Source: an uncultured archaeon
GTDB taxonomy: Archaea; Asgardarchaeota; Lokiarchaeia; Sigyniarchaeales; SOKP01
NCBI GenBank assembly: GCA_964388035.1
Contig: CAYLZE010000008.1
Location: 22,000-85,999, forward strand
Length of the DNA: 64,000 nucleotides
Direction of reading: 5' to 3'
Shown here one piece after another: positions 13,643-33,732 of the stretch. Within the stretch, counting starts at the first letter, position 1; each line of letters opens with the position of its first letter. A program made the position numbers and the translations under genes. The notes under the pieces are model-generated. The model did not search any database, was not told the DNA's origin, and was given only the letters and a program-made list of their open reading frames with translations.

Positions 13643-14275
13643 ATGATATTTAAAAAAGTAATTATTGGACCATTAACTACCAATTGCTATATTTTCGGCT
13701 CATCTCAGACAAGAGAGGTCATCGTAATAGATCCCGCATTTGAAATCGATCAAATTCAGCAAAATATCAATACTTTAGGAGCGCGTCCTATAGCGGTATT
13801 AATAACGCATTCGCATTTTGATCACGTCATGAAGGTTAAAAAATTCTTGCGTATTTATAATGTACCTTTAATGTACAGCAAGAGGGATTACAAAAATGGA
13901 ATGAGTCCTTTAGTAGAAGCAGATCGATGGTTAAATGAAGGGGATACTATAAAAGTGGGGGAATTGACAATACACGTATTAGAGACTCCCGGACATTCTC
14001 CAGGTTCTCTCAGCTATTATTGTAAAGATGTGAAAGAATTTGATGAAAAGAAAGTGGACGGCTTGATATTTACGGGAGATTTGCTATTTAGGAGAAGTAT
14101 TGGCAGATCAGACGTGCCAGGTGGAGACCAAAGAATTTTATTTGAAAGCATTAAAAATAAAATCATGTATAATGGAGAATTATCTGATGATTTTATTGTC
14201 TTACCCGGCCACATGGGATCTACCACCATCGGTGAAGAAAGAAAACAAAATATGTTTAGACAATATTTCTTGTAG
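13643..14275 (+). CDS. Metallo-beta-lactamase fold hydrolase (glyoxalase II-like)
   Basis: THSHFDH, TPGHSPG, FTGD and PGH. Confidence 0.93.
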   Translation: MIFKKVIIGPLTTNCYIFGSSQTREVIVIDPAFEIDQIQQNINTLGARPIAVLITHSHFDHVMKVKKFLRIYNVPLMYSKRDYKNGMSPLVEADRWLNEGDTIKVGELTIHVLETPGHSPGSLSYYCKDVKEFDEKKVDGLIFTGDLLFRRSIGRSDVPGGDQRILFESIKNKIMYNGELSDDFIVLPGHMGSTTIGEERKQNMFRQYFL

Positions 14276-14318
14276 AAATAGGATTATATAAAGGATTTTT
14301 TATCATATTGCGACGAGA

Positions 14319-14804
14319 ATGACAAGAAAAGTATTAGTATTTGAACCAAAAAAATGTATTGGGTGTAGACTTTGCGAACAAATCTGCTCCATGACTCATT
14401 TTAATATGACTAATCCAAAAAAAGCGTCGATTCGTATTATACGGGATACCGTGGCACAGCTTGATCTTGCAATTTATTGTCACCAATGTAAAAATCCTCC
14501 TTGTGTAAATGCGTGCAAGTTTGATGCACTTTCAATAGAACCCATGACTCATGCGATCCATGTAGAATCGGAAAAATGCATTTTATGCAGAAAATGTATC
14601 CAAGAATGTCCCCATGCTGCTCCATCCATCCATCCGACGGAGGAATATGTTTTAATTTGCGATTTGTGTAAAGGAAAACCTGCTTGTGTAGAAATTTGTC
14701 CCGAACACGCCATTCAATATCTTGAGGTTGCGAGGGCAGATAACATTTATAAATCAATTTACGTGAAAGAAATGGCGCAAAAGTTAATTCAGGAGGAAAA
14801 TTAA
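14319..14804 (+). CDS. 4x[4Fe-4S] electron-transfer subunit partnered with AOR
   Basis: CIGCRLCEQIC, CHQC..PPCVNAC, CILCRKCIQECP and CDLC..PACVEICP; ends 1 nt before aor. Confidence 0.9.
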   Translation: MTRKVLVFEPKKCIGCRLCEQICSMTHFNMTNPKKASIRIIRDTVAQLDLAIYCHQCKNPPCVNACKFDALSIEPMTHAIHVESEKCILCRKCIQECPHAAPSIHPTEEYVLICDLCKGKPACVEICPEHAIQYLEVARADNIYKSIYVKEMAQKLIQEEN

Positions 14805-14805
14805 G

Positions 14806-16632
14806 GTGGTTTTAGCAACAAGCATCTATGGAAAAGTTCTGAGAATAAACCTTACTGAGAAGAATTATAGAGTAGATACTTATGGTCGACAAGAAGTAGA
14901 ACTCTTTTTAGGCGGAAGAGGATTGGGAGCTTATTTTTTATTCAAAGAAGTTCCTCCCAGAATGGACCCATTAGAGCCAGAGAATAAATTGATTTTTATG
15001 AATGGCCCCTTGGCTGGGACATTAATTCCAGGAAATAATAAAGTATGCGTTACTTTTAAATCACCACTAACAAATAGTTATTCTTACTCTTTATGTGGAG
15101 GACATTGGGGTCCCGAGTTAAAATTTGCAGGGTATGATGGATTAATCATTGAAGGAAAGGCTGATCGCCCCGTATTCATATGGATTAATAATTCAGAAAT
15201 TAAGATTAAACCTGCTGAAAACATTTGGGGAAATACGATTCCAAAAACTGAAGAATTAATTCGAAATGAATTAGGTGATGATAATTCCATTCAAATTGCC
15301 GGGATTGGGCAAGCAGGGGAAAAATTGGTTAGTTATGCTTGTATTACTGCGGGATTATATAGAGAATTTGGTCGAGGCGGCTCGGGTGCGGTAATGGGTT
15401 CGAAGAATTTGAAAGGAATTGCAATAAGTGGGTCAAATGATGTTAAGGTGGTATGTCCAGAGGATGTAATAGCGTTAAGTAAGAAACTTATTCAAAATGT
15501 ACGAAATTCTAAAATAGGTCAAGTTCGAAGAATTTATGGGACGATGGAATTAGTTGAGCGCATTAATAATGCCGGATTTTGGGTGACACGTAATTTTTCT
15601 GAAGGCCATTTTAAGGATGGATACAAATTGGAAGGTACTCAAATGCGCGAAAAAATAATTTCCGGGGATAGTTCCTGTTTTGGATGCCCAATCGGATGCG
15701 GAAAATGGACTTTCATCCAAAATGAAGAAGACTTGTCAAAAATTCAAATGGAAGGTCCCGAATTTGAAACCGTAGGCATGTTGGGTTCCAATTGTGGCAT
15801 AAGTAGTTGGAAAACGCTTCTAAAGGCATCAAAGATTTGTGATACTTACGGACTCGATACCATTAATGCTGGAGCGTGCATTTCTATGGCGATGGAAGCT
15901 TTTGAAAAGGGAAGATTGACCCTAAAAAATACAGATAACATCGAGTTAAAATTCGGCAACGATGCTGCCCTCCTTGCAATGTTAGAAAAAATTGGTAATC
16001 GAGAGGGATTAGGGAATATTTTAGCAAAAGGCGTAGAACGAGCGGGAATTGAGTTAAAAATAGTTGACTTAGCAAATCATTCTAAAGGACAATCTTTTCC
16101 CGTATATGACCCTAGAGGTGCTAAAGCAATGGCTCTCACGTATGCAACATCCCCTAAAGGCGCTCATCACATGTATGCGACCACTTTTGGATTAGAACTC
16201 AGTCTTGGGAACCGATTTGAAGAAAAAGGAAAGGGTGTTATTGAAAGAAATCAACAATTTAGCATGGCCATTGTGGATTCGATTGCACTCTGTTCCTCAA
16301 TGCGGGGTGGAATACCTCTTGAGGATCAAGCCGAAGCATTTTCTCTTGTGACCGGAATTCCCATGAATGTTGAAAGGTTAACTTTAGCTGCTGAACGGAT
16401 AATAAATCTTGAGCGAATGTATAATGTAAGACTGGGCTTTAATAGGAGCAATGACACTCTTCCTGAAAGATTTACCAAAGAGACATTATCCGATGGTAAT
16501 AGCAAGGGGCAAATAGTAGATTTGAATTATTTATTAGATGATTATTACAGCATTATGGGGTGGAACTCTAACGGGGTTCCAAAAGAGAAGAAATTGAAAG
16601 AACTTGGATTACTCGAGTTAATTACTCCTTAA
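14806..16632 (+). CDS. aor: Tungsten-dependent aldehyde:ferredoxin oxidoreductase family enzyme
   Basis: LGGRGL, KSPLT, LKFAGYD, GRGGSGAVMGSKNLK, CFGCPIGC, EGPEFET, DTYGLDTI and YYSIMGW. Confidence 0.95.
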   Translation: MVLATSIYGKVLRINLTEKNYRVDTYGRQEVELFLGGRGLGAYFLFKEVPPRMDPLEPENKLIFMNGPLAGTLIPGNNKVCVTFKSPLTNSYSYSLCGGHWGPELKFAGYDGLIIEGKADRPVFIWINNSEIKIKPAENIWGNTIPKTEELIRNELGDDNSIQIAGIGQAGEKLVSYACITAGLYREFGRGGSGAVMGSKNLKGIAISGSNDVKVVCPEDVIALSKKLIQNVRNSKIGQVRRIYGTMELVERINNAGFWVTRNFSEGHFKDGYKLEGTQMREKIISGDSSCFGCPIGCGKWTFIQNEEDLSKIQMEGPEFETVGMLGSNCGISSWKTLLKASKICDTYGLDTINAGACISMAMEAFEKGRLTLKNTDNIELKFGNDAALLAMLEKIGNREGLGNILAKGVERAGIELKIVDLANHSKGQSFPVYDPRGAKAMALTYATSPKGAHHMYATTFGLELSLGNRFEEKGKGVIERNQQFSMAIVDSIALCSSMRGGIPLEDQAEAFSLVTGIPMNVERLTLAAERIINLERMYNVRLGFNRSNDTLPERFTKETLSDGNSKGQIVDLNYLLDDYYSIMGWNSNGVPKEKKLKELGLLELITP

Positions 16633-20616: not shown

Positions 20617-23600
20617 TTATTCCTTATCAAGACCCTCTTTCTTTAATAAATCGTCTAACTTAACTTTAGCTTCTTTCTCTTCTTTTTTAGCTTCTTTCTC
20701 TACCGTTGGTTTTTCTTCAGAAGGTACTTTTTTTGTTTCATCAGTCTTTAATTCTGAAACCTTGACATATTTACCTTTTACTTTTTTCACTTTGGGTTTC
20801 GCTTTTTCCAGAGGGGTCTCAATCTTACGGATCAGTTTTCTTGCATACCAAATAGTAAAAAGCCAAATTCCTCCAATTCCTATTAAGATTGATACAGTCA
20901 TGACAACAGATGGGAAAGGAGGATCCAAGATATCTAAAGAAGTCTTACCTTCAGTTCTCACAATTTGTTTAGAAAGGACATTTTGTCCTTTAATAGTCAC
21001 CGTAATATTCAACAAGTCATAGGTTGTATCAGGTACAAAAAAGTCTATAGTAATTGATGTAGATTCACCTGGTTTCAATCGAGCTAATTCATAATTATTT
21101 ATGGCAACGATGGTAAAATTAATTCCCTTTTCCAATGCGATATTGGTCTCTAATATTGAAACTGTAGAATTCCCCGTATTTAATATAGCAAAAGTTAAAG
21201 TTCCATTTTCATTACGATACACGGCTTGATTCGGTAGAACATCAAAACCTAGAGAAAGTTCATTAAACTCGGAAGTAATATTGATAGGAATTTCATGACT
21301 TTTACTTAGAAAATTACTATCTCCTGGCCAATATAACCGAAATTTAAAATCTTCCATAATATATAGGGGCACAGTATCAATTTCAAATTCTAATATTCCC
21401 TCCGAATCAGATCTTACACCTGTAATGTTTATCCAAGACGTTCCATCAAAATACTCGCAGGAAACTATTTTACCCGCTAAGATTTCATTAAACTCTGTCT
21501 CCATGATGGAAGAAATAGTTACCGTATCTCCTTCAATGGGATTTTGGGGCGTATAAGTAATATTTACAAATTTGCTATTTATTTTAAAAATATTTGATAT
21601 ATTTGAACTTATTAAAATACTCATGTAATTTTCATCAAATAGGTTCACGATAAAATAGGTTTTCTTCGGAGAATACAGACATTCATCTCTTTCAAACACT
21701 TTTGTGATAGTATTACTTGAAGTATTGAATGAAGTCTTGGTTGAAATGATTTCTCCTTCGAAATCATGTTCATCTGCAAGCGTAATTAAAGAATATTGTG
21801 GACTATCAAAATAACCCACATTTTTTCCTTCAATATATATTAATACTCTTGTTTTTACTCCGCCTAACCTCATGGGACAATTAACACCTTTCCAGGATTT
21901 TGTTGCGGGATCATATTGAGGCATCATCATGCTTAAATTATACATGATGCTATCTTGATTGTTGCCAAAATATTTCAATAACACGGTATCGCTTGAATTT
22001 TCGGCGATAATCCATTGATCATTTGCCAAAGACAAGAGTTGTACTTTAATCCTGACATTGAGATCGGTTATGTCATCTCTGTTTTGAAGCAAAATTTTAA
22101 ATGTAATTTCCTCTCCTGGATTCAAAATGCTCTCGTTTTGTCTGAATGAATTTAAAGATACGTCAAAATCTAAACTTCCTAACTCGTAAGAAAATAATTG
22201 GTTGATAGAAAGATTACTAATGGTATAATAATCAGGTCTGTTTGTACCGGTTGTTTCATTAACAGTAGCCATTAGGATGGAATATTTATTAAGAATTCTC
22301 GTGATAAAATTTCCCTCAAGCACGTTACTTCCTACTTCGGGATAGAAAGTTGCTCCCGTTAAATCTACCTCATAATCATTTATTTGAATGAAAACCTTTT
22401 TACAGCCAATTGCAGTACCATTAGTCCAAAAAAAGCCAATTTGGTAGCGCCCCAAAATGGGGATGGAAGTAGTGATATTAATGATAGTATTGTTAGAAAA
22501 ATCATATTTCAAAAGGGAATCAATCAAAACACCATTATTAGAAAAGAGTTCTGCAGTGGGAACTCTCGTATTATTGGGATAAAAAAGAGTAGCATTCACA
22601 CTTCCTCCGTCTGGAGCAATCCCAAATTCATCTTGAATGTATACGCTCAAAGACACGTTATCTCCATACATGAATCCTTCTGTTTCCCATAAAATGCCTT
22701 CAAAATTAATGAAACTATGCATTTGATTAATGGAATTATAGCTTGTCAAATTTAGCACGTAAGAGCCGTTATATACGGGCATTGATACATTTATTAAGGC
22801 GGTGGTTAGAATTAATTTATTAAATAGAGGGTCGTCAGATAATTCTGAAGCACTCCCTATTTGATCGAGAACATCTCCATCAAGGGGGTTTGGTGTTGTT
22901 AGATTAAGGGGTGTCCAATAATTAGGAAATATAAACCAATATTCTGTAAAATTCCAGTTAGGATAATATTGATTTGGATCGAGCGTATCATTTAAAGTCC
23001 AGAGAGGAATATCGTTATAATATATCTTAAATAGGGCGGTGACATTTTCATATCTATAAATTTTAGCAAGGTAAGTCACGTTAAAAAGTAAACCTTTTGT
23101 AAGAGTGATATATCCTGTAAAATTAACAAAAAGTGTATTAAAGCGATCAGCTTCAATATAATCCGTAAGATCATGGAGCCATCGACCGCTTCCCCATTCC
23201 ATTATATTAACATTACTTTCATTATATGGATAAACATCAATTCTTTGGTCAACAAGTGTTAAATTCTGTATTCTTAACTCACCATTAAAATCGGAAGGCA
23301 TATATCCTCGTGTAACGTTTAATTCAAAAGAACTTGCGTCTAATTGTGTAGATGTATATGGAGTCGAAGTAGTTTCAATTAACTTTTTCGCATTAGTCCA
23401 CGTAACCCCATTATTGGTGGTTCTTTTTAATTGCTGTTCTAATTTTCCATCCCCAATTGATGCATCAGAAGGGATGGTAACTAAGCTATAGATTAAATCG
23501 CTCGAACTTGAGTTTATCACAATAAAATAATTTCCAATACCCAGGTTCACCGCATTAATTGAACTTAAATCAAAATAAGTAATTCCATCCCCTTTAAAAG

Positions 23601-24777
23601 AATCTATCAAAATCGAACCTAAATATTGAGAATAATCAGGAGATATCATAGTTTTTTGTAATCCATCGCTATCCCGCACGATAGAATTATTAGACCTGTA
23701 AAGACTAATATTTAATTTAACTCCAGAAGCCATCGTTCGATTTAACGTTCGTATCCAGGCATTAAATCCATTAATGGTCGTTCCTTCACCTCTCAAATCA
23801 AATTCTAATGCCACATAAGATTCACTAGTAATCGGAAGATCAAAAGCTAATGCTGCTTGCAAATCAAATTCGAATAATGAGACATTAAAAGTGGAAGAAT
23901 GATCCGTTCTGTTAAAATAGAACTGAATTAGAGAAATATCACTCGAATTAATGAAATCCAAATTGGTGTTTATGAATCTCTCATCTATTTGCTGGGTTAT
24001 GGGAAGACTACTATTTATTGGAATAATATCGGTTATATTAATCCATGCGCCTTGAGTGACGTTCCAAGCTTTAATGGTAAGATTTGCATCTAAAGTGATA
24101 TTGAATTTTATGGAGAGGAGAAATCCAAGAATTTCTGTACGATTAAACACGGTTTCCACGGTTCCACTTGGGGGGACATTATCAGTTGAGGTAGATTTGG
24201 AAAAATTCGCATTAATAGAAAAATTTAAAGCTCCATTTTGAGAAGTAAGGTTCCAATAAGTGATAAGATTAGAAATGGCTGTAAAATCTTCGTTTAATGG
24301 ATTTTGACCTTCAAGTAGATTCAGACCCGATGTTGGTTTATTATATGGATATAAAATCATCTTGCTAGGATCCAAACTGGTTAAAGCATTGTCATTTTCA
24401 ATGACATGTTCCGTGGTGTAATTATTATTGAACGTGAAATTAAAATCTCCATGACTGAGATTCATGTAATTATCGGGGACGGATATATTAAAAGATCCCA
24501 AATTATTATTGGAATAGGATTGATTTACAAAATAAGTCCTAATAGTTTGATTATCACCGTGTCCAGTAATACTTTCATTTGCTTTTAAATTAGAATTGGA
24601 ACTGGTAAGATCATTTTTATTATATTCTTTATCAGGAATAGAAGAATCATTATTAATCGATTCTTGATTTGGATTCAACATTCCAAAATTGTTAAATTGA
24701 CTAAGAGTTGTTAATAAGAAAATTGCTACGATAAAACTTACACTAAAGACCTTAAAAGCTTTTTTTTTCGATAGCAA
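20617..24777 (-). CDS. Large cell-surface glycoprotein (N-terminal signal/TM, beta-rich repeats, C-terminal TM, charged tail)
   Basis: Hydrophobic N-terminus, very many N-x-S/T sequons, CARDB/Ig-like segment (ILNTGNS...LKPGES), TM VVMTVSILIGIGGIWLFTIW and a K/E-rich tail. Confidence 0.8.
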   Translation of the reverse strand: MLSKKKAFKVFSVSFIVAIFLLTTLSQFNNFGMLNPNQESINNDSSIPDKEYNKNDLTSSNSNLKANESITGHGDNQTIRTYFVNQSYSNNNLGSFNISVPDNYMNLSHGDFNFTFNNNYTTEHVIENDNALTSLDPSKMILYPYNKPTSGLNLLEGQNPLNEDFTAISNLITYWNLTSQNGALNFSINANFSKSTSTDNVPPSGTVETVFNRTEILGFLLSIKFNITLDANLTIKAWNVTQGAWINITDIIPINSSLPITQQIDERFINTNLDFINSSDISLIQFYFNRTDHSSTFNVSLFEFDLQAALAFDLPITSESYVALEFDLRGEGTTINGFNAWIRTLNRTMASGVKLNISLYRSNNSIVRDSDGLQKTMISPDYSQYLGSILIDSFKGDGITYFDLSSINAVNLGIGNYFIVINSSSSDLIYSLVTIPSDASIGDGKLEQQLKRTTNNGVTWTNAKKLIETTSTPYTSTQLDASSFELNVTRGYMPSDFNGELRIQNLTLVDQRIDVYPYNESNVNIMEWGSGRWLHDLTDYIEADRFNTLFVNFTGYITLTKGLLFNVTYLAKIYRYENVTALFKIYYNDIPLWTLNDTLDPNQYYPNWNFTEYWFIFPNYWTPLNLTTPNPLDGDVLDQIGSASELSDDPLFNKLILTTALINVSMPVYNGSYVLNLTSYNSINQMHSFINFEGILWETEGFMYGDNVSLSVYIQDEFGIAPDGGSVNATLFYPNNTRVPTAELFSNNGVLIDSLLKYDFSNNTIINITTSIPILGRYQIGFFWTNGTAIGCKKVFIQINDYEVDLTGATFYPEVGSNVLEGNFITRILNKYSILMATVNETTGTNRPDYYTISNLSINQLFSYELGSLDFDVSLNSFRQNESILNPGEEITFKILLQNRDDITDLNVRIKVQLLSLANDQWIIAENSSDTVLLKYFGNNQDSIMYNLSMMMPQYDPATKSWKGVNCPMRLGGVKTRVLIYIEGKNVGYFDSPQYSLITLADEHDFEGEIISTKTSFNTSSNTITKVFERDECLYSPKKTYFIVNLFDENYMSILISSNISNIFKINSKFVNITYTPQNPIEGDTVTISSIMETEFNEILAGKIVSCEYFDGTSWINITGVRSDSEGILEFEIDTVPLYIMEDFKFRLYWPGDSNFLSKSHEIPINITSEFNELSLGFDVLPNQAVYRNENGTLTFAILNTGNSTVSILETNIALEKGINFTIVAINNYELARLKPGESTSITIDFFVPDTTYDLLNITVTIKGQNVLSKQIVRTEGKTSLDILDPPFPSVVMTVSILIGIGGIWLFTIWYARKLIRKIETPLEKAKPKVKKVKGKYVKVSELKTDETKKVPSEEKPTVEKEAKKEEKEAKVKLDDLLKKEGLDKE

Positions 24778-26383: not shown

Positions 26384-27562
26384 TTGCGAGACACTACCAA
26401 AGTAGAAGACTGTGTTGCCTTACTTGATGTTTCACGTTCAATGTTAAAAACAGACTTCAAACCGAATAGATTAAATAATGCAATTGAGACCTTAAAAAAT
26501 TTCATTCACTCCAAGTTATCCTTGGATCCAAGCGATAAAATTGCCCTTATCACGTTTGGTGGGAATGCGAAAAGATTAGTACCTTTTACAAATGAAGAAA
26601 CTATTTTGATAAATTCATTCCAAAAAATTCGCGTGAGTGGAAGGGGTAACATATCTCAAGGAATTTCTTTTTCTATCCAATTATTAATAAAGGAAATGCA
26701 AAAGCTAGGAGGAAAAATTTCAAGAATCTTCATTCTCACGGATAATAAAATAATTGAAGAAGATGGAAAATTAAACGAAATTGTTGAAGTAGCAAAGGGA
26801 TTGGGCGTTTATGTGGATGTGTGTCAAATAGGGAAAACAGAGGATTATCGTCAAAGCAAATTGAAACTCCTAACTCGGCAGACCGGAGGGGAATATGGAT
26901 ATTTCAATAATACTAAAGCGTTAGTCAATTCTGGAAAATCATTCGCTTCCAAAAAAGAATTAAAATTTTCACGCGATTATTTCGCTCGGGATAATAAAAG
27001 TGAAAACGCGCCCTTATTAAATGAGATCGCCCTACCATTAAAGCGACCCTCTGTTTTAGAATTAAAAGCCATGATAAATAGTCACGATACGGATTTAGAA
27101 AAATGTCAGATATGTCATTCCATGAAATCTCCGGTAACTAATGCCGATCTCTATTCCGAGGGGCGCATATGCCCTTCATGTGAGCATCCCATGCATTTAT
27201 CGTGTGCAGCCATGTGGGCAAAGGGGACAGAATATTCCGAAAGCGTGTTTCGATGCCCGTTCTGTTATTACCTATTAAAAATACCTACCTCCGCCCTCAA
27301 GATTGCTGAGATAAGGCAAGCCAATGCTCAAAACACTACTAAAGACACTTTGAAAGAACATAAACAAACAAGAATGAAATTAATCCCTAATGAAGAAGTT
27401 GAATCGATTTACGGTTCGTGTAGTTATTGTCGAAATATATTCATGGGAGAGCACGATGTATATCAATGCGAGCAGTGCGGGGCTTATTATCACGAACCTT
27501 GTCTCCAAAAAATGTTCAAAGAGCTAAAAAGTTGCCGTAATTGTGGTGCTCAAATAGTATAA
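26384..27562 (+). CDS. VWA-domain protein with two C4HC3 RING-variant fingers (Ssl1/p44-like architecture)
   Basis: MIDAS DVSRS with DFKPNRL; fingers CQIC..CPSC..H..C..W..CPFC and CSYC..CEQC..H..C..CRNC. Confidence 0.85.
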   Translation: MRDTTKVEDCVALLDVSRSMLKTDFKPNRLNNAIETLKNFIHSKLSLDPSDKIALITFGGNAKRLVPFTNEETILINSFQKIRVSGRGNISQGISFSIQLLIKEMQKLGGKISRIFILTDNKIIEEDGKLNEIVEVAKGLGVYVDVCQIGKTEDYRQSKLKLLTRQTGGEYGYFNNTKALVNSGKSFASKKELKFSRDYFARDNKSENAPLLNEIALPLKRPSVLELKAMINSHDTDLEKCQICHSMKSPVTNADLYSEGRICPSCEHPMHLSCAAMWAKGTEYSESVFRCPFCYYLLKIPTSALKIAEIRQANAQNTTKDTLKEHKQTRMKLIPNEEVESIYGSCSYCRNIFMGEHDVYQCEQCGAYYHEPCLQKMFKELKSCRNCGAQIV

Positions 27563-27695: not shown

Positions 27696-29759
27696 TTGAT
27701 TACGATGCCTAACGAGGATAAACGAAAATGGGTGGTGACTTCGGCTTGGCCTTATGTAAACGCTACACCGCATTTAGGCACGATGGTCGGAAGTGTCTTA
27801 TCTGCTGACGTTTTTGCCAGATTCCTACGATTATTGGGAGATGAAGTGGTGTTTGTTTCGGGATCCGATGTTCATGGAACTCCCGTGGCAGTAGAGGCAA
27901 AAAAGCAAGGGATTTCTGCTGAGGAATTAGCGGAAAGAAATCACGAAATAACCGCTTCATTATTCAAGCGTTGGAATATATCTTATGATAATTACACGCA
28001 AACCCATAATCCAACCCATATTGAATTTTGTCAAGATTTTTATCTTGAAGTGCAAAAAAATGGGTTCGTGGAAGAGAAGGAAATCGAATCGTTATATTGT
28101 GAAAAGGATGCCATGTATCTCCCAGATAGATTCGTAGAAGGGGAATGTCCTTATTGTGGAGCAGAAAATGCAAGAGGGGATCAATGTGATAAATGTCAAA
28201 AATTATTAACTCCTTTAGAATTAGTAAAACCTCGATGTGCGATTTGTGGTAATCCTCCTGTTATTCAGAAAACTAGACACTGGTATTTACTTTTTCCAAA
28301 ACTACAAGATCAATTGAAAGCGTTTATTGAACAAAATGAGATCATTCCACAAAATGCCAAGCAATTATGTCTCAATAGTATTGAAGAAGGATTGCCCGAA
28401 CGTGCTATCACCCGAGATCTGGAATGGGGCATTCCAGCAAAATTCAAGGGAGCTGAGGGTAAAACTATTTATGTTTGGTTTGAAGCAGTACTGGGATACA
28501 TTTCTGCAGTAAAGGAGTGGGCGGATAAGATACTTAAAGTGCCCGAAAAATTCGATTACTTCTGGAAGGATCCTAACACGAGAACGGTTTATTTTATTGG
28601 AAAGGATAATATCATTTTTCATTTGATTGTTTTTCCGGGACTTATAATGGCTTACAATAAAAATAAAAAGAAAGATGAAAGACTGGTGCTTCCCTATAAC
28701 GTTTCTTCAACGGAATTTCTCATGTATGAAAATGATAAGTTTTCTAAATCCAGAGGAGTAGGAATATGGATTGATGAAGCATTGGAATTAGCCCCTTTAG
28801 ACTATTGGCGGTTCAATTTGATTTATAACAGACCCGAAAAGAGCGATACGTCTTTTTTATGGTCTGAATTTGAAAATGATATTAAGATGCTAAATGATGT
28901 GATTGGAAACTTCATCCACCGCACGTTAACTTTTATCAATAAGCAATTCAAGAGCAAAATTCCCGAACAATTAAGCTTCGATGAAAAAGATAAGGCGTTC
29001 GCAGTAAAAATTAATTCTATCGCTAAAACTATTGGAAACTTGATGGAGCAATTTGAATTAAGAAATGCTCTCCGAGAGATCGTTAATTTTGCGCGAGACG
29101 GAAATGTCTATTTAAACGATAAAGCGCCATGGCATCTGATTAGCAAGGAGAAAACTTTAGCGGGACAAGTTTTTAACTTATGCGGACAGGCAGTTTATGC
29201 TCTTGCAGTTCTACTAGCACCATTTATACCGGATACATCGCAGAGGATCTTAGAATATTTGAATTATTCTAAGGGATTGGATCACATTGAGTGGAATAGC
29301 ATATCAGAAAAAGTATTGGAAAATGGGCATTCAATAAAGAAACCACAACCGTTATTTACAAAATTAGATATTGATGAATTGAAAGAAAAACTAAATGACA
29401 TTAGGAAGGATAAAAGTAAAATGGTAGAAAAACAGGAAGATATTTCATATAATGAATTTAAAAGATTGGATATCAGAATTGCTCAAATACTCGAAGTCGA
29501 ATCCGTTCCAAAAACAGAGCATTTATTAAAATTGACCATTGATATTGGTACAGAAAAAAGAACTCTAGTAGCAGGGTTGGCTCAACATTATAAACCAAAT
29601 GAATTAATTAACAAAAAAATTGTTGTTCTTACAAATTTAGAACCGAAAAAACTGAGAGGAATAACAAGTCAAGGGATGCTTTTAGCTGCAGTAGAAGGAG
29701 ATAAGGTAGCTATTTTAACACCTGATTCAGAAATTCCCCCGGGAGCCAAGATAGAATAG
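27696..29759 (+). CDS. metG: Methionine--tRNA ligase (probable start ATG 27705)
   Basis: TSAWPYVN..PHLG, GSDVHG, Zn knuckle, ITRDLEWG, YVWFEA, GKDNIIFH, KFSKS and a C-terminal tRNA-binding domain (SQGMLL). Confidence 0.98.
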   Translation: MITMPNEDKRKWVVTSAWPYVNATPHLGTMVGSVLSADVFARFLRLLGDEVVFVSGSDVHGTPVAVEAKKQGISAEELAERNHEITASLFKRWNISYDNYTQTHNPTHIEFCQDFYLEVQKNGFVEEKEIESLYCEKDAMYLPDRFVEGECPYCGAENARGDQCDKCQKLLTPLELVKPRCAICGNPPVIQKTRHWYLLFPKLQDQLKAFIEQNEIIPQNAKQLCLNSIEEGLPERAITRDLEWGIPAKFKGAEGKTIYVWFEAVLGYISAVKEWADKILKVPEKFDYFWKDPNTRTVYFIGKDNIIFHLIVFPGLIMAYNKNKKKDERLVLPYNVSSTEFLMYENDKFSKSRGVGIWIDEALELAPLDYWRFNLIYNRPEKSDTSFLWSEFENDIKMLNDVIGNFIHRTLTFINKQFKSKIPEQLSFDEKDKAFAVKINSIAKTIGNLMEQFELRNALREIVNFARDGNVYLNDKAPWHLISKEKTLAGQVFNLCGQAVYALAVLLAPFIPDTSQRILEYLNYSKGLDHIEWNSISEKVLENGHSIKKPQPLFTKLDIDELKEKLNDIRKDKSKMVEKQEDISYNEFKRLDIRIAQILEVESVPKTEHLLKLTIDIGTEKRTLVAGLAQHYKPNELINKKIVVLTNLEPKKLRGITSQGMLLAAVEGDKVAILTPDSEIPPGAKIE

Positions 29760-29760
29760 C

Positions 29761-30984
29761 TCATACTTTTAAAGAAAAAATCGGAGTTAATTTAGCTAGA
29801 ATTTCTCCTAATTCTAGATACATGGACTTTAAAACCACAGCTCTCCCACGATATTTGAACTCCAGGTCTGCAACATCGCGAATTATCTTTAACCTCTCTG
29901 CTTTTGATAAGGAACAGACAAAATATCTCTGATCTTTATATTCCATGACCTCAATTACATTTTTTATATCTGGTAATGCATATCCTCCTCCGTGTGGTAG
30001 GATATTGGCATTTACCAGTTGATCTGAAACTTCTAATTCTTTTGCTTGGAGATCAAAATTTAAACTTTTTATGATTGTTGACGAGAAATTCGGTTTACCT
30101 TTTAATAAATAACAGGAAATATTTGCCCTTAAAGCAACGGGGAAAATGCTCGATTGGACATAACCACTCATTAAATCCGTACAATTAGCTCCTAAATACA
30201 TATTATTAAAGTCATTTAAAAATTGATGGAATTGATTGCTGATTGCTTGATATTTACCAAAAATGTGTTCTGCTATTAATTCTCTTTTAACTTTTGAGAA
30301 TTTACTTACTTTTTGATTGAAGCGGTAATAGTCTTTTGCATTTGAATCTAAAAGCAGATGTTGGATTGTTCCAAATACCGTTGATTCTCTTATAGAAAGA
30401 TCCTTTAAAGTCTGTGATTTGTCCACGTAAAGGCCCATGCCATATGTATCATCCTTAAATTCGGGTACAGAACCGTGAATGAAGAATATATAGGGAGGTA
30501 ACTTAATATCAGAATAATTTTGTATTTTAAAGCAATTTATAAAGTGATTTGAAACATTAAAATCCCACGTGATTTTAATATCCCATCCATTTAATGAATA
30601 GTAAAGAGGGGAAGTTTTTATTTCGTCAATTTTTTTTATAATTTCTAACGCTTCTGGCTTTTCCTCCAAACCACCCACTAAAATTCCACAATAATTTGGT
30701 TTTGTATTAAGAAATATGGCATGTTCTTTTCCATTTCCCCAGTTCAGTTTTCCTCCATATCCAAATCCGGAATTCCAACGGAATGGATTCTTTGAGATGG
30801 TCTCATCGGGGGAGGAAATAAAGCAAGCTTTAGGGGTAAACCCGTATTTTTCTTGAATAAGGTGAATTTGAGCCAAGCCATAAGCCATGTTCTTTTTACA
30901 TAAAATAGAAGCACCATCATTAATTCCCGTAGAAAAAATGAATCTACTGGCTCTGTTCAATAATTCTGATTTAGATAATTTCAC
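29761..30984 (-). CDS. Divergent RtcB-fold protein (putative RNA 3'-phosphate/5'-OH ligase)
   Basis: Collinear RtcB-like motifs SPD..GFGYGG, NYCG, SNHF, IHGS, FHQ, YLLKG, PHGGG and AKLTPIFSLK. Confidence 0.75.
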   Translation of the reverse strand: MKLSKSELLNRASRFIFSTGINDGASILCKKNMAYGLAQIHLIQEKYGFTPKACFISSPDETISKNPFRWNSGFGYGGKLNWGNGKEHAIFLNTKPNYCGILVGGLEEKPEALEIIKKIDEIKTSPLYYSLNGWDIKITWDFNVSNHFINCFKIQNYSDIKLPPYIFFIHGSVPEFKDDTYGMGLYVDKSQTLKDLSIRESTVFGTIQHLLLDSNAKDYYRFNQKVSKFSKVKRELIAEHIFGKYQAISNQFHQFLNDFNNMYLGANCTDLMSGYVQSSIFPVALRANISCYLLKGKPNFSSTIIKSLNFDLQAKELEVSDQLVNANILPHGGGYALPDIKNVIEVMEYKDQRYFVCSLSKAERLKIIRDVADLEFKYRGRAVVLKSMYLELGEILAKLTPIFSLKV

Positions 30985-31078
30985 TAAGTTCTGTGTTGCG
31001 ATGGAAATGAAAGATCCACCTCCGTAGTTTTATTTATGTACAATTAAGTATTTATATATACGCATTATATATTTAAGA

Positions 31079-31729
31079 TTGACCGTGTTAAATTACAATA
31101 TGGACCAGAATATGGTTTTGTATGACGATTTCAAAGGTATCCTATCGAATGGATCTTTTACTGGTTGTTCAATCATAACGAAATGTCAGGATTCATCTAA
31201 TTCCATCATTTTTTCTGATAACATAACCATTTCGGAAGATCAGAAAATTGTGATTAAAGAGGGATTGAAAATTGGTTTTAGTTTAAATTTAAATAAGGAA
31301 ACCGCTTTTTCTGAAAAGAGAGATTTTACCTGGGAAGAAGATTTTACTTCTTTAGAATATTCCGTATTAATTCCCGAACGTGTCATGGAATTATACGATG
31401 AAGGGCGATTTTCTGAATCATATCCTTTCACTATTAATTTATTGCATACTGCGGGGCTTTTTTTTCGAACAGCAAATGGAGGAAATTTAAACCATCTGGA
31501 TTTTGTTATTGGAGAAATAATAAAAAATCCCATTTGTTTAATCGAAAATGGGATTATAGTAGCAGATAGAGTTGTTATTGATGATAGAGGAGATCCCGTT
31601 TTTTATGATTGCATTATAGTTGGGAGAGACCAAGAAGATAATCTTTCTGTTTCATATGAACCATTTGCAAACGTTTCAGAAGGACTGATTTACATAATCA
31701 TTTTAGGAAAAGAATCCTTAAGGGAATGA
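31079..31729 (+). CDS. Hypothetical protein, probably co-transcribed with the downstream ATPase
   Basis: 216-aa ORF ending 10 nt upstream of the next CDS. Confidence 0.7.
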   Translation: MTVLNYNMDQNMVLYDDFKGILSNGSFTGCSIITKCQDSSNSIIFSDNITISEDQKIVIKEGLKIGFSLNLNKETAFSEKRDFTWEEDFTSLEYSVLIPERVMELYDEGRFSESYPFTINLLHTAGLFFRTANGGNLNHLDFVIGEIIKNPICLIENGIIVADRVVIDDRGDPVFYDCIIVGRDQEDNLSVSYEPFANVSEGLIYIIILGKESLRE

Positions 31730-31739
31730 AAATATTTGA

Positions 31740-33002
31740 TTGAAAGGGTTAATAAGAATGCTATTATATGAAAATAAAAAGAAGAAATTTTTACGAATAC
31801 TCCAAATCGGGATAAATCCCTTTCAAAAATTTGTATCTACAGGAGAAATCAAGGAAACCCTTGGAATGGTTCCCTCAAGGAAAGATTTTATGGATGCAAT
31901 CATAGATCTTATCGAGAGTAATGAAAATTTCATTCTCCCAATCATTGGAGATACTGGAAGAGGAAAGACCCACTTGTTCTGGGCATTACGAAATGAATTA
32001 ACCTACAATTATATCGTCCATATTTCCCCAGAGAATCTTTATCGCAAGTTTTATTATAATATATATTCCGAATTCATAGAAACTTTAGGGATAAATGTGC
32101 TACGAAGTATAACAAATCAATTATGTAATCAATGGGGCGCCCTGGAGAGAAAATTTGGATTTTTTTATTTAGCCGATATAGAGAAAGTGCGAAAGATGGC
32201 TTTTAACACGTTAGAATCGCAATTTAAAAATAAGGAAGCCTTAAAGGATGTCATTCAAACCATAACTTCTCATCAATTAGATCCTTATAGAAGGTTGGAT
32301 GCGGAAAATTGGTTATTAGGGAATATCATGGATTTCAAAGAGCTTTCAATGTTAAACGTGCAAAATGATCTAAGTAAAAGTATCTATGCCTATACCATGT
32401 TAAAATTATTGATCGAAAATGCAAAACTTGAAAGTATTGTTTTCATTGACGATTTTGATCGAATTCTCTCTCTTTTAAAATTCGAAGAAGAAGTGGAAGA
32501 AGTTTTCGATCCAAGTTGGTTATATGGCAAAAATGAAGAACAATCTATTTCCAGAAGTAACACCATCATGAAAGTTATTGATAAGATTTCTGAATTAGTG
32601 CAGATACAGGGGTTAAAGTGCATTATAACTCTCCGGTCTCTGGATGCTCTTGAACAAATTAAGGAATTATTCAGCAAAACACATTTAGAAACCTTATCTC
32701 TCTTTAAACAACCCTTATTTTTGACAGATTTTAACAGAAATGATATTTTTTATTTTTATAGAGAGTATATAAAAATCTTTTTGGACGATATTGGGTTTCC
32801 AGAATTATTAGATTTGAATACAGATCCATACTATCCTCTTACTGAAAAAATCCTTCATGACTTTTTTTCAATTTCCCAAGGAAATCCAAGAAATGTAATT
32901 AAGACATTAATCAACATTTTTAACGAAATAATCATGAGTAATGAAAGTCTTGAAGATATTATCGCAAATTATGAAAAAATAGCTCATCCTAAATCGTTTT
33001 GA
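31740..33002 (+). CDS. AAA+-type P-loop ATPase (BrxD/Cdc6/ExeA-like)
   Basis: Walker A GDTGRGKT, Walker B VFIDD, YYPLT and sensor-2-like SQGNPR. Confidence 0.85.
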   Translation: MKGLIRMLLYENKKKKFLRILQIGINPFQKFVSTGEIKETLGMVPSRKDFMDAIIDLIESNENFILPIIGDTGRGKTHLFWALRNELTYNYIVHISPENLYRKFYYNIYSEFIETLGINVLRSITNQLCNQWGALERKFGFFYLADIEKVRKMAFNTLESQFKNKEALKDVIQTITSHQLDPYRRLDAENWLLGNIMDFKELSMLNVQNDLSKSIYAYTMLKLLIENAKLESIVFIDDFDRILSLLKFEEEVEEVFDPSWLYGKNEEQSISRSNTIMKVIDKISELVQIQGLKCIITLRSLDALEQIKELFSKTHLETLSLFKQPLFLTDFNRNDIFYFYREYIKIFLDDIGFPELLDLNTDPYYPLTEKILHDFFSISQGNPRNVIKTLINIFNEIIMSNESLEDIIANYEKIAHPKSF

Positions 33003-33732
33003 GGAATATCTTGATGTAAATGTCTATTTCATTCAAGATCATTTCTTTAACCTCCTTTTCCCATTTCGCATTCTCAACCAGCAACTTGAAGGAATTTAAT
33101 GATCCGAATTTTAATGGATTATCAAATATAATAACAAGAAGCTTACGTATCATTCTTTTATTTAATTTTTTACGAAATTCAGCTTCATTTAAAATATCGA
33201 ATAAGGCCTTTTCCTCCTTTACATGCTCATTAATTATCTTAGAAGTAAGCTCCCCAATTCTTGAATTATTATCTTCCAATAAAAGAATGATATCCTTTAA
33301 AAGTTCATTATTGATCTCTTTTAAATTACTTATAAAATTAAGAGCACTGATTCTGATTAAGTCATAATCCTCCTTCAAACTAACTTGGAATAATGACATG
33401 TTTTGATCTGAAATGGGATTCATATCCGAAATCTTATCTAATGCTTGAATTATCTCATTTCGAATCCATCTATCGGAGTTAAAATAAGAATCATTAAGAT
33501 AATCGATGTATTTTTTTGGAAGTTTTTCTTTTTGTCCAATATTCCCTAGTAGATAAATTATATTTATCTTTACTTTTTCAAGGAATGAAGAATTGAAAGA
33601 GCTTATTAAAAAATCTATTACTTGTAAGTGATCTGAGCTAGCATCTTGCCCTAAAGTGAGTAAGACATCATTAATCTTTTCAGGGTTTTTCTCTTTCTTA
33701 ATGCTTTTCAATATTTCATCTAGTGATTTCAA
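32989..33732 (-). CDS. HEAT-repeat protein
   Basis: Helical repeats IIYLLGNIG, DRWIRNEIIQALDKI, DYDLIRISAL and LEDNNSRI. Confidence 0.75.
   Translation of the reverse strand: MKSLDEILKSIKKEKNPEKINDVLLTLGQDASSDHLQVIDFLISSFNSSFLEKVKINIIYLLGNIGQKEKLPKKYIDYLNDSYFNSDRWIRNEIIQALDKISDMNPISDQNMSLFQVSLKEDYDLIRISALNFISNLKEINNELLKDIILLLEDNNSRIGELTSKIINEHVKEEKALFDILNEAEFRKKLNKRMIRKLLVIIFDNPLKFGSLNSFKLLVENAKWEKEVKEMILNEIDIYIKIFLKTI

Follow-up and report, generated by a model that had tools for sequence, protein, structure and literature searches.

An RtcB-like gene outside the curated families

The window, that is, the whole analysed stretch of 64,000 nucleotides from a Lokiarchaeia genome, carries on its reverse strand (29761..30984) an open reading frame of 407 amino acids with a GTG start and a TGA stop. 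Its product, P0001, is predicted to adopt the RtcB fold, and the gene is called RtcB-like below. At E <= 1e-3 the protein has 670 homologs, and every named member of the family is labelled "hypothetical protein". In the literature searched there is no account of a characterised member, nor any paper that pairs 'RtcB-like' with 'Asgard'; the RNA-repair survey of Burroughs and Aravind lay outside the scope of that search and may hold a prior mention. With a pI of 8.9 and a net charge of +9, P0001 itself is a basic protein. The family as a whole has a mean pI of 6.8, as compared to 8.5 for Asgard RtcB; so near-neutral a value is unusual for an enzyme that acts on nucleic acids.

The curated libraries did not recognise the protein. 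Searches of NCBIfam and PADLOC with P0001 gave no match, and the Pfam search gave only a sub-threshold match to TPK. The RtcB model PF01139 (gathering threshold 27 bits) did not match P0001 even at E <= 10, and among ten distant family members the best match, found for a single protein, had an E-value of 0.3 at 10.7 bits, below that threshold. Simple comparisons were equally silent: phmmer with P0001 against the PDB returned chance TIM and antibody matches only, a shallow profile of 30 sequences retrieved no RtcB from the PDB sequences, and hhalign of that profile with a single RtcB sequence was insignificant.

Evidence for an RtcB fold

A reading made from the sequence alone had proposed a highly divergent RtcB fold on the basis of ten collinear motifs, and all ten were recovered in that order in the re-translated ORF. 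The profile of the family, when compared with the PDB sequences, had RtcB as each of its top four matches (E 0.011-0.021), and its alignment by hhalign with a profile of Asgard RtcB covered 288 columns at E 1.8e-4. In six-frame genome searches the same family profile retrieved the canonical RtcB genes, with E-values from 1.4e-5 to 6.8e-4.

The structure model is in line with these results. An earlier AlphaFold model, built from 30 close sequences, had a pLDDT of 68.8 and a marginal Foldseek match (E 0.02); it was replaced by a model based on an alignment of 60 sequences, with a pLDDT of 97 and a pTM of 0.94. The comparison with RtcB by AlphaFold and Foldseek that the initial proposal had suggested as a check now gave E 1.9e-7 at a probability of 1.00, and residues 6-407 of the model superpose on RtcB 16-481, from end to end. 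Judged by the profiles and the predicted structure, the likeness of P0001 to RtcB is far above chance. The superposition and the sequence register are also consistent with a convergence of the Cys and His residues on one active site. Together they support the fold and the predicted retention of the active site; the term 'RNA ligase' is a putative label.

Active-site residues

Conservation was counted over 60 family sequences, with identities down to 24% (range 24-68%). All features described here lie on the reverse strand. Seven residues (D60, H147, F148, H170, H253, H331 and G334) are present in 60/60, and four more are nearly invariant: C99 (56/60), N146 (58/60), G332 (59/60) and R379 (59/60). 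Across this range of identities the alignment indicates that the catalytic residues, as predicted from RtcB, are under strong purifying selection.

In RtcB, Cys98 bridges both metals and is, together with His234 and His329, a ligand of M1, and Asp95 is a ligand of M2 (PMC9745838). His203 is the other M2 ligand considered here, and the neighbouring Asn202 contacts phosphate and the 5'-OH (PMC9745838, PMC8051266). In the sequence alignment the three M1 ligands are matched by C99, H170 and H253, and His203 of the GNHF motif by H147. The metal-binding residues thus appear to be retained, as had been expected from the motifs, with the His residues present in 60/60 and the Cys lost in a small subclade (P0126, P0145, P0150, P0160). 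C99 is part of the segment K95-P-N97-Y-C99-G100 (KPNYCG95-100; 30685..30702), in which N97 likely replaces the M2 ligand Asp95. Where RtcB has D-x-x-C, the family has no acidic residue three positions before the Cys, and its motif is [KR]-P-N-x-C. The change from Asp to Asn before CG that had been noticed in the single sequence is indeed a family trait, N97 being N in 53/60, D in 3, S in 3 and T in 1. We propose C99, H170 and H253 as putative M1 ligands and C99, H147 and N97, the latter in place of Asp, as putative M2 ligands; with Asn at this position the two-metal chemistry may be altered.

The other ligands are found in N146-H147-F148 (30541..30549), which aligns in register with Asn202-His203-Phe204, in H170-G-S-V-P174-E175 (HGS170-172; 30460..30477), whose E175 occurs in 52/60, and in H253-Q254 (30223..30228), which hhalign places on His329 and Asn330 and in which Q is found in 45/60. 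The nucleophile His404 in the H-G-A-G loop of RtcB, which is guanylylated, aligns with H331 in the PHGGG sequence of P330-H331-G-G-G-Y335 (29980..29997). The Arg of HGAGR is replaced by Tyr (Y335, 50/60), and the claims made for both of these positions are borne out by the alignment. YLGA263-266 and CYLLKG291-296 lie between these two segments; for the strand with HRK in RtcB and MYL in P0001, hhalign differs by six residues from the pairing given in the sequence-only reading. Towards the C-terminus follow Y378-R379 (29848..29853; Y 53/60), the counterpart of RtcB 'AYK', and K406 (29767..29769; K 41/60, R 7/60), the counterpart of Lys480.

Near the N-terminus, P59-D60 (30805..30810) corresponds to the 'PD' of RtcB, D60 aligning with Asp65. 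Between this motif and GFGYGG73-78 the family has a loop, T62-W70 (30775..30801; consensus TITRNxxRW), that was recognised by its conservation and spacing and that RtcB lacks. Its conserved residues are R65 (R51/K4 of 60), N66 and R69 (R52/K5).

In RtcB, Asn330 contacts the gamma-phosphate, and guanine is contacted by Glu206 (N1/N2) and Lys480 (O6) (PMC9745838); at the Glu206 position the family has N23/E12/D11 of 60, with N in P0001. Arg238, Arg190 and Gln194 contact the 5'-OH strand (PMC8051266), and their counterparts are not conserved in the family alignment. Arg238 aligns with P174, at a position that reads P21/S12/R6 of 60, and the segment of Arg190 and Gln194 aligns with a non-conserved stretch beside a 57-residue deletion.

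Distribution and paralog status

The genome of the window also encodes a full-length canonical RtcB (PF01139, E 9e-166) with an adjoining archease, and a six-frame search of the genome with PF01139 found the canonical gene on one contig (C23) only. The RtcB-like gene is therefore an extra paralog. Canonical RtcB was found in 59/61 genomes of the phylum. The RtcB-like gene has a patchy distribution among Asgard genomes (84/201), and is near-universal in the Asgard family of the window (38/40 genomes); in several other Asgard families it is common. Practically all of these genomes keep canonical RtcB, and so nothing points to its replacement. In the Loki-type clade the RtcB-like proteins are 60-68% identical. 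Beyond the Asgard archaea the family occurs in the Bathyarchaeia, in methanogen lineages, in the Methanonatronarchaeia and in MAGs of several bacterial phyla. The ortholog in the named strain Methanonatronarchaeum sp. AMET6-2 has the accession WP_247139482.1. The sequencing runs that carry the DNA of the window are salt-marsh and sediment metagenomes, with no RNA run among those listed.

Gene neighbourhood and fusions

Across the Loki-type clade the RtcB-like gene is convergent with metG at a gap of 1 nt. Within 6 kb of the gene, the loci of the window's clade (~60) contain no HD, Metallophos or GDPD partner, so that any functional argument from gene context is borrowed from other clades. There, a partner-type HD gene is found on the same strand at a distance of up to 600 nt in 10/18 non-Loki loci, with the order swapped in some, and Metallophos genes flank the RtcB-like gene. 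In one further Asgard family (f6) the RtcB-like gene is present in 7/43 genomes, exactly the same 7 that have the partner-type HD gene. Neither the HD nor the Metallophos partners matched a curated equivalog; the flanking Metallophos proteins are closest to 2',3'- and 3',5'-cyclic-nucleotide phosphodiesterases, below the curated cut-offs.

Other neighbours are of a different kind. In 5 divergent Asgard loci the next gene downstream encodes a GDPD glycerophosphodiesterase, and one more locus has such a gene nearby; a sugar-transfer-type ATP-grasp gene is found near the RtcB-like gene in Planctomycetota and Helarchaeota. In a Bathyarchaeia genome the RtcB-like gene is located between archease and canonical RtcB, all within 6 kb. 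A complex prediction for the RtcB-like protein and the archease of its genome gave a score of 0.00 (mark 0.32), which has no bearing on binding either way. Finally, the RtcB-like domain is fused to a domain of the APH/choline-kinase type in two different proteins, of 743 and 748 aa. Their kinase part has its HxDxxxxN and IDxD motifs intact, and no catalytic residue is lost from the RtcB-like part. A search for longer fused forms gave none above 714 aa, a weak result, since the same search missed the known fusion of 743 aa.

Several candidate partners were discarded. An HD protein encoded on contig C80 (E 3e-35) was rejected as an unlinked partner because matches in this range of scores are generic and often found in lineages without the RtcB-like gene, true partner orthologs having E <= 1e-74. 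The 216-aa ORF that adjoins the RtcB-like gene in the window is not a cryptic HD protein. In the bacterial operons, the downstream gene of 412 aa is a member of TIGR00375 rather than another RtcB-like gene. The set formed by the RtcB-like gene, the 216-aa ORF, a P-loop gene (420 aa) and a HEAT gene was rejected as a functional module, because its gene order is conserved only among near relatives of the window's clade, and L069 and L072 lack both of the middle genes.

Proposed function and alternatives

Our preferred reading, in which we place about even confidence, is that P0001 is a predicted active enzyme from a separate clade of compact proteins (~400 aa) within the RtcB superfamily, unrecognised by the curated libraries, and that it acts in non-canonical repair or capping of nucleic-acid ends. 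The residue pattern suggests that it probably performs RtcB-type chemistry on a substrate other than that of RtcB. In the presence of Mn2+, H331 would attack the alpha-phosphate of a purine NTP (probably GTP), giving a covalent His-NMP adduct of the enzyme, from which the NMP would be transferred to a terminal phosphomonoester of the substrate. Attack by a hydroxyl would then yield a phosphodiester with release of NMP (ligation), or the reaction may halt at the capped intermediate. Since the clamp residues Arg238, Arg190 and Gln194 are missing and the loop 62-70 supplies new conserved Arg, Asn and Trp residues, the acceptor would be bound unlike the exon ends of canonical tRNA; the loss of the known contacts to the 5'-OH strand fits the change in substrate or chemistry that had been suggested earlier. 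The enzyme would act beside, and not instead of, the canonical RtcB-archease pair of the genome, and in other lineages it may cooperate with the HD and Metallophos phosphoesterases in the processing of phosphate ends.

The GDPD and sugar-transfer-type ATP-grasp neighbours and the APH-type fusion count against an RNA substrate and point to small-molecule chemistry. The family could be a phosphodiester ligase for small molecules or lipid head groups, in which the His-NMP chemistry activates a metabolite phosphomonoester, such as a glycerophospho or sugar-phospho compound that an APH-type kinase may produce, and joins it to a hydroxyl with release of NMP. GTP-activated phosphodiester formation in the biosynthesis of the cobalamin nucleotide loop and of F420 follows the same chemical logic in a different fold. 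We consider this explanation unlikely, and judge in the same way its wider form, in which the family has moved RtcB chemistry out of RNA biology into phosphodiester-linked small molecules or lipid head groups of anaerobic sediment archaea and bacteria, with APH-type kinases making the phosphomonoester and GDPD, HD and Metallophos enzymes recycling it. The loss of the RNA-strand contacts, the near-neutral pI of the family and the intact key residues in both halves of the fusions would suit it. However, only a single fusion architecture was found, the neighbours it invokes are absent from the window's clade, the HD and Metallophos partners would suit the healing of RNA ends equally well, and in the Bathyarchaeia the neighbours are archease and RtcB. 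Moreover, all characterised RtcB proteins act on polynucleotide ends (PMC9745838, PMC8051266).

That P0001 is an ordinary 3'-P/5'-OH RNA ligase, redundant with canonical RtcB as a second ligase for tRNA splicing or repair and merely drifted in sequence, appears quite improbable. The full catalytic core, the constant position next to metG and the adjoining archease in the Bathyarchaeia would agree with such an isozyme, but simple drift conflicts with the 60-68% identity within the Loki-type clade and with the invariant family-specific residues, the 5'-OH clamp and ~57 residues between the Cys and NHF are missing, and the patchy occurrence is at odds with the near-universal presence of RtcB. A catalytically dead RtcB-fold scaffold, sensor or regulator, as the Asn at the M2 position and the subclade without the Cys might suggest, is very improbable. 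Even in very distant members the four His, NHF and the PHGGG loop are invariant and the Cys is nearly so, which speaks for catalysis having been kept, and 3 of the 7 exceptions at N97 are D, as expected of a metal ligand.

The family represents a compact second branch of the RtcB superfamily, widespread, tightly conserved and invisible to Pfam and NCBIfam, and it comprises several hundred genes that lack annotation and whose chemistry can be tested. If the substrate is RNA, the family may constitute a new pathway of RNA repair or capping in the archaea most closely related to eukaryotes; if it is not a nucleic acid, the family may be the first instance of RtcB chemistry on another kind of substrate. 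The family is also a natural experiment on how the Asp-to-Asn change at M2 and the removal of 57 residues affect RtcB catalysis.

Comparison with known RtcB systems

P0001 shares with canonical RtcB (PF01139; P. horikoshii 4DWQ/1UC2; human RTCB) the counterparts of Cys98, His203, His234, His329 and His404, as well as those of Asn202, the AYK tyrosine and the C-terminal Lys480, and from H253 to the C-terminus its spacing differs by no more than 3 residues from that of RtcB. Identity to canonical RtcB is nevertheless only 12-14%, and the protein is ~80 residues shorter, mainly by the ~57-residue deletion between the Cys and NHF. The family furthermore replaces Asp95 by Asn, the Arg of HGAGR by Tyr, Asn330 by Gln and Arg238 by Pro or Ser, with a conserved Glu adjoining; it is variable (N/E/D) at Glu206 and has the additional TITRNxxRW loop. 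It coexists with canonical RtcB, to our knowledge the only enzyme class that seals 3'-phosphate ends via a His-GMP intermediate, and does not replace it.

In healing-and-sealing systems, RNA ligases are accompanied by HD-domain and calcineurin-like phosphoesterase modules. The pairing of the RtcB-like gene with an HD phosphohydrolase and/or Metallophos gene in other clades resembles these systems; unlike them, the RtcB-like loci have no P-loop-type polynucleotide kinase, and in the window's clade these partners are missing.

Specialised paralogs are known in bacteria as well. RtcB3 of Myxococcus xanthus, for one, caps 5'-phosphates. A further specialised paralog is E. coli RtcB2, with PrfH (PMC9304027); near the RtcB-like loci inspected, no PrfH, RtcA or RtcR-type neighbours were seen. 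RtcB2 and RtcB3 are PF01139 members of normal length, whereas the RtcB-like family lies outside the Pfam model and lacks the known strand-binding residues. What it shares with them is the precedent of extra RtcB paralogs that have specialised substrates or stop at capping.

A compact RtcB-like gene convergent with metG

The window's RtcB-like protein (P0001, 407 aa) is encoded by a single ORF on the minus strand (29761-30984) that runs from a GTG start codon to a TGA stop codon. The motifs from which a divergent RtcB-fold RNA ligase had been proposed in the sequence-only reading were all recovered, in the same order, when each was re-translated from its coordinates. This gene converges on metG (27696-29759, plus strand), whose methionyl-tRNA synthetase product carries a tRNA_bind (Trbp111/EMAP-like) domain at its C-terminus; a single base separates the two stop codons. 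On the other side it is divergent from an adjoining 216-aa ORF without known family (31079-31729, plus strand). Next to this ORF lies one of 420 aa (31740-33002, plus strand), whose GDTGRGKT motif resembles Walker A. Both lack a Pfam or PADLOC match, and together they make up a two-gene cassette flanked by the RtcB-like gene and, on its other side, a HEAT-like gene (32989-33732, minus strand).

Elsewhere in the window, a 1386-aa ORF (20617-24777, minus strand) matches no Pfam family at E <= 1e-3 and has syntenic counterparts in close relatives (cluster c6, loci L054 and L060). A 392-aa protein (26384-27562, plus strand) combines an N-terminal vWA domain with C-terminal RING/C1-like zinc fingers, a layout that recalls the eukaryotic TFIIH p44/Ssl1 subunit; it also scores above the Pfam cut-off for Ssl1-like proteins (36 bits versus 27).

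P0001 itself gave a sub-threshold, irrelevant match in Pfam, none in NCBIfam or PADLOC, and chance matches only among the PDB sequences (phmmer); no curated family model covers the compact RtcB-like family. Judged by its homologs, the gene is nevertheless clearly real and conserved despite its absence from the sequence libraries. There are 670 homologous proteins at E <= 1e-3, of which the best 120 share 59-68% identity with P0001 and, where named, are all called 'hypothetical protein', in MAGs of Promethearchaeota, Loki-, Hod-, Hermod- or Thorarchaeota. Among 1.8 billion cluster representatives searched, 230 matched at E <= 1e-3, 72 of them at E <= 1e-30. No description of the family was found in the searchable literature, whose coverage here was incomplete.

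RtcB fold and sequence homology

A structure model was built from an alignment of 60 family members (A2, identity down to 24%) and reached a pLDDT of 97.0 and a pTM of 0.94. As modelled, P0001 has the RtcB fold that had been claimed for it: Foldseek matched RtcB chains at E 1.9e-7 to 8.8e-6 (probability 1.00) and, beyond these, nothing under E 0.05.

Homology to RtcB is also visible at the sequence level when a profile as diverse as A2 is used. Its four best matches among the PDB sequences are RtcB (E 0.011-0.021), aligned in register at NHF, the H-G-S histidine, HGxG, Y[RK] and the C-terminal Lys. Alignment with a profile of 25 Asgard RtcBs (hhalign, E 1.8e-4, 288 columns) agrees motif for motif from NHF through the last residue. 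Six-frame searches of Asgard genomes with A2 gave weak matches (E 1.4e-5 to 6.8e-4) within ORFs of ~500 aa, and on re-searching (genomes G089, G094, G135, G186 and G195) six out of six lay inside canonical PF01139 RtcB genes. In a protein-language-model atlas, 26 of the 30 nearest clusters belong to the PF01139 set.

Coexistence with canonical RtcB and distribution

The check for a canonical RtcB in the window's genome found a full one (490 aa, E 9e-166) on contig C23, with a convergent archease gene (144 aa) ~30 nt off (14016-15763; loci L001 and L062). Of 61 genomes taken from across the phylum, 59 have canonical RtcB; archease is present in 41 of 41. The RtcB-like protein is thus an additional paralog that coexists with both. 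Several Asgard genomes (G003, G026, G035, G044 and G053) show a split PF01139 match (positions 1-50 and ~45-426, 1.4-2.5 kb apart) within one stop-free frame of 973-1015 aa, which looks like an intein-containing RtcB.

The RtcB-like family is patchier than canonical RtcB and was found in 84 of 201 Asgard genomes. It is present in 38/40 genomes of the window's own Asgard family (f1), in 4/4 of f2, 6/7 of f13, 10/21 of f4, 7/43 of f6 and 0/19 of f11; all ten f22 genomes have it, mostly in two copies. Exact-cluster look-ups added Methanonatronarchaeum sp. AMET6-2 (WP_247139482.1, 377 aa) and a Methanofastidiosia MAG. Scanning species-representative genomes yielded 200 loci, with archaeal hosts among the Loki-, Hod-, Hermod-, Thor-, Odin- and Helarchaeota and the Bathyarchaeia, and bacterial hosts (43-49% identity) among the Aerophobetes, Anaerolineae, Clostridia, Planctomycetota, Deltaproteobacteria and Deferrimicrobium. 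The bacterial carriers are MAGs and one SAG; several are on contigs of 30-84 kb. For MAGs in general, the taxon labels are those deposited.

Gene neighbourhoods

The ORFs of 98 loci were clustered and then searched with HMMs of recurrent neighbours. In the window's clade (~60 loci, 57-63% identity) HD, Metallophos, GDPD, archease and ATP-grasp partners are absent within 6 kb, and nothing recurs except the convergent metG and, in close relatives, the HEAT-like gene and the two-gene cassette; the cassette is present in L060, L063, L088 and L103 and missing from L069 and L072. We read this synteny as inherited, not as a demonstrated module.

In other clades the family is associated with phosphoesterases. 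At 10 of 18 loci an HD-domain protein (~200 aa, PF01966) is encoded on the same strand within 600 nt, frequently overlapping the RtcB-like gene or within 4 nt of it, upstream in Aerophobetes, Clostridia and Helarchaeota and downstream in Anaerolineae and Deltaproteobacteria; this is the pattern of a functional pair. Of 201 Asgard genomes, 15 have partner-type HD orthologs (E <= 1e-74), and 14 of these 15 also carry the RtcB-like gene; in f6 the same seven of 43 genomes are positive for both. Since related genomes are not independent, this co-occurrence is suggestive rather than statistical. A 530-aa Metallophos enzyme, closest to cyclic-nucleotide phosphodiesterases although under the curated cut-offs, lies upstream in seven loci, with a GDPD phosphodiesterase downstream in five of them and nearby in a sixth. 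In two related Bathyarchaeia genomes the RtcB-like gene is convergent with archease, and on one contig archease (25683-26099) and canonical RtcB (30358-31671) lie on either side of it.

Planctomycetota and Helarchaeota have sugar-transfer-type ATP-grasp genes close by. In two proteins, of 743 and 748 aa, a wholly intact RtcB-like domain is fused to an APH-type kinase whose catalytic motifs are intact; a longer-form search, which itself missed the 743-aa protein, found no further fusions. Operons in Aerophobetes and Clostridia (L133:7196-8431, L135 and L137) have, directly after the RtcB-like gene, a gene for a 412-aa TIGR00375-family protein (E 1.4e-62, under the curated cut-off), with nusA and infB next in order.

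Retained active site and proposed chemistry

In P. horikoshii RtcB, M1 is bound by Cys98, His234 and His329 and M2 by Asp95, Cys98 and His203, and the guanylylated residue is His404 (PMC9745838, PMC8051266). The binuclear-site and nucleophile residues are retained under strong constraint, as anticipated for the Cys and His residues. The counterparts of the PD aspartate (D60), His234 (H170), His329 (H253) and His404 (H331) are invariant (60/60 in A2), Cys98 corresponds to C99 (56/60), and Asn202-His203-Phe204 to N146-H147-F148 (58, 60 and 60 of 60). The AYK tyrosine is kept as Y378 (53/60) and Lys480 as K406 (K in 41, R in 7 of 60). Full-length superposition of the model and the sequence register suggest that these residues converge spatially. 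The signature is present across a tree of 88 full-length representatives, except in one small subclade (P0126, P0145, P0150 and P0160), where the bridging Cys and the preceding PN are replaced by Ser or Gly; its members keep all four His and may be inactive or mechanistically altered.

We infer that the protein would form a His331-NMP intermediate, probably with GTP in view of the retained Lys480 and AYK counterparts, and would pass the NMP to a phosphomonoester. As substrate we favour, at about even odds, nucleic-acid ends handled non-canonically, in repair or capping. The grounds are that every RtcB characterised so far works on ends of this kind, that HD and Metallophos enzymes typically accompany end healing, that the Bathyarchaeia locus ties the gene to archease and RtcB, and that P0001 is basic (computed pI 8.9). 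A small-molecule or lipid phosphodiester ligase is an unlikely yet serious rival. In its favour are the fusion to an APH-type kinase, the GDPD and ATP-grasp genes nearby, the loss of RNA contacts and a family pI close to neutral (6.8 versus 8.5 for RtcB). A plain redundant tRNA ligase is less likely, indeed improbable, and a dead scaffold very improbable.

Comparison with characterised RtcBs

From H253 to the C-terminus the landmarks are spaced within three residues of RtcB. The Cys-to-NHF distance is 47 residues in P0001 versus 104 in the same genome's own RtcB. In P. horikoshii RtcB the 5'-OH strand is held by Arg190, Gln194 and Arg238, phosphate is contacted by Asn202 and Asn330, and guanine is read by Glu206 and Lys480 (PMC9745838, PMC8051266). 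The known 5'-OH strand contacts are lost in the RtcB-like family: the counterpart of the Arg190/Gln194 stretch, which borders a deletion of ~57 residues, is not conserved, and neither is P174, which replaces Arg238 next to a family-conserved E175 (52/60). Asn330 has become Q254 (45/60) and the Glu206 position is N, E or D. Two of the substitutions noted earlier are general to the family, with Tyr for the HGAGR Arg (Y335, 50/60) and Asn for the Asp before CG (N97; N53, D3, S3, T1). Asp95 has no acidic counterpart in the resulting [KR]PNxC motif; the D in three of the seven exceptions is what a metal-ligand position would be expected to show. The family is also set apart by nine conserved residues inserted after PD (TITRNxxRW), both arginines of which are conserved. 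It is best classed within the known RtcB superfamily, as a new branch of it.
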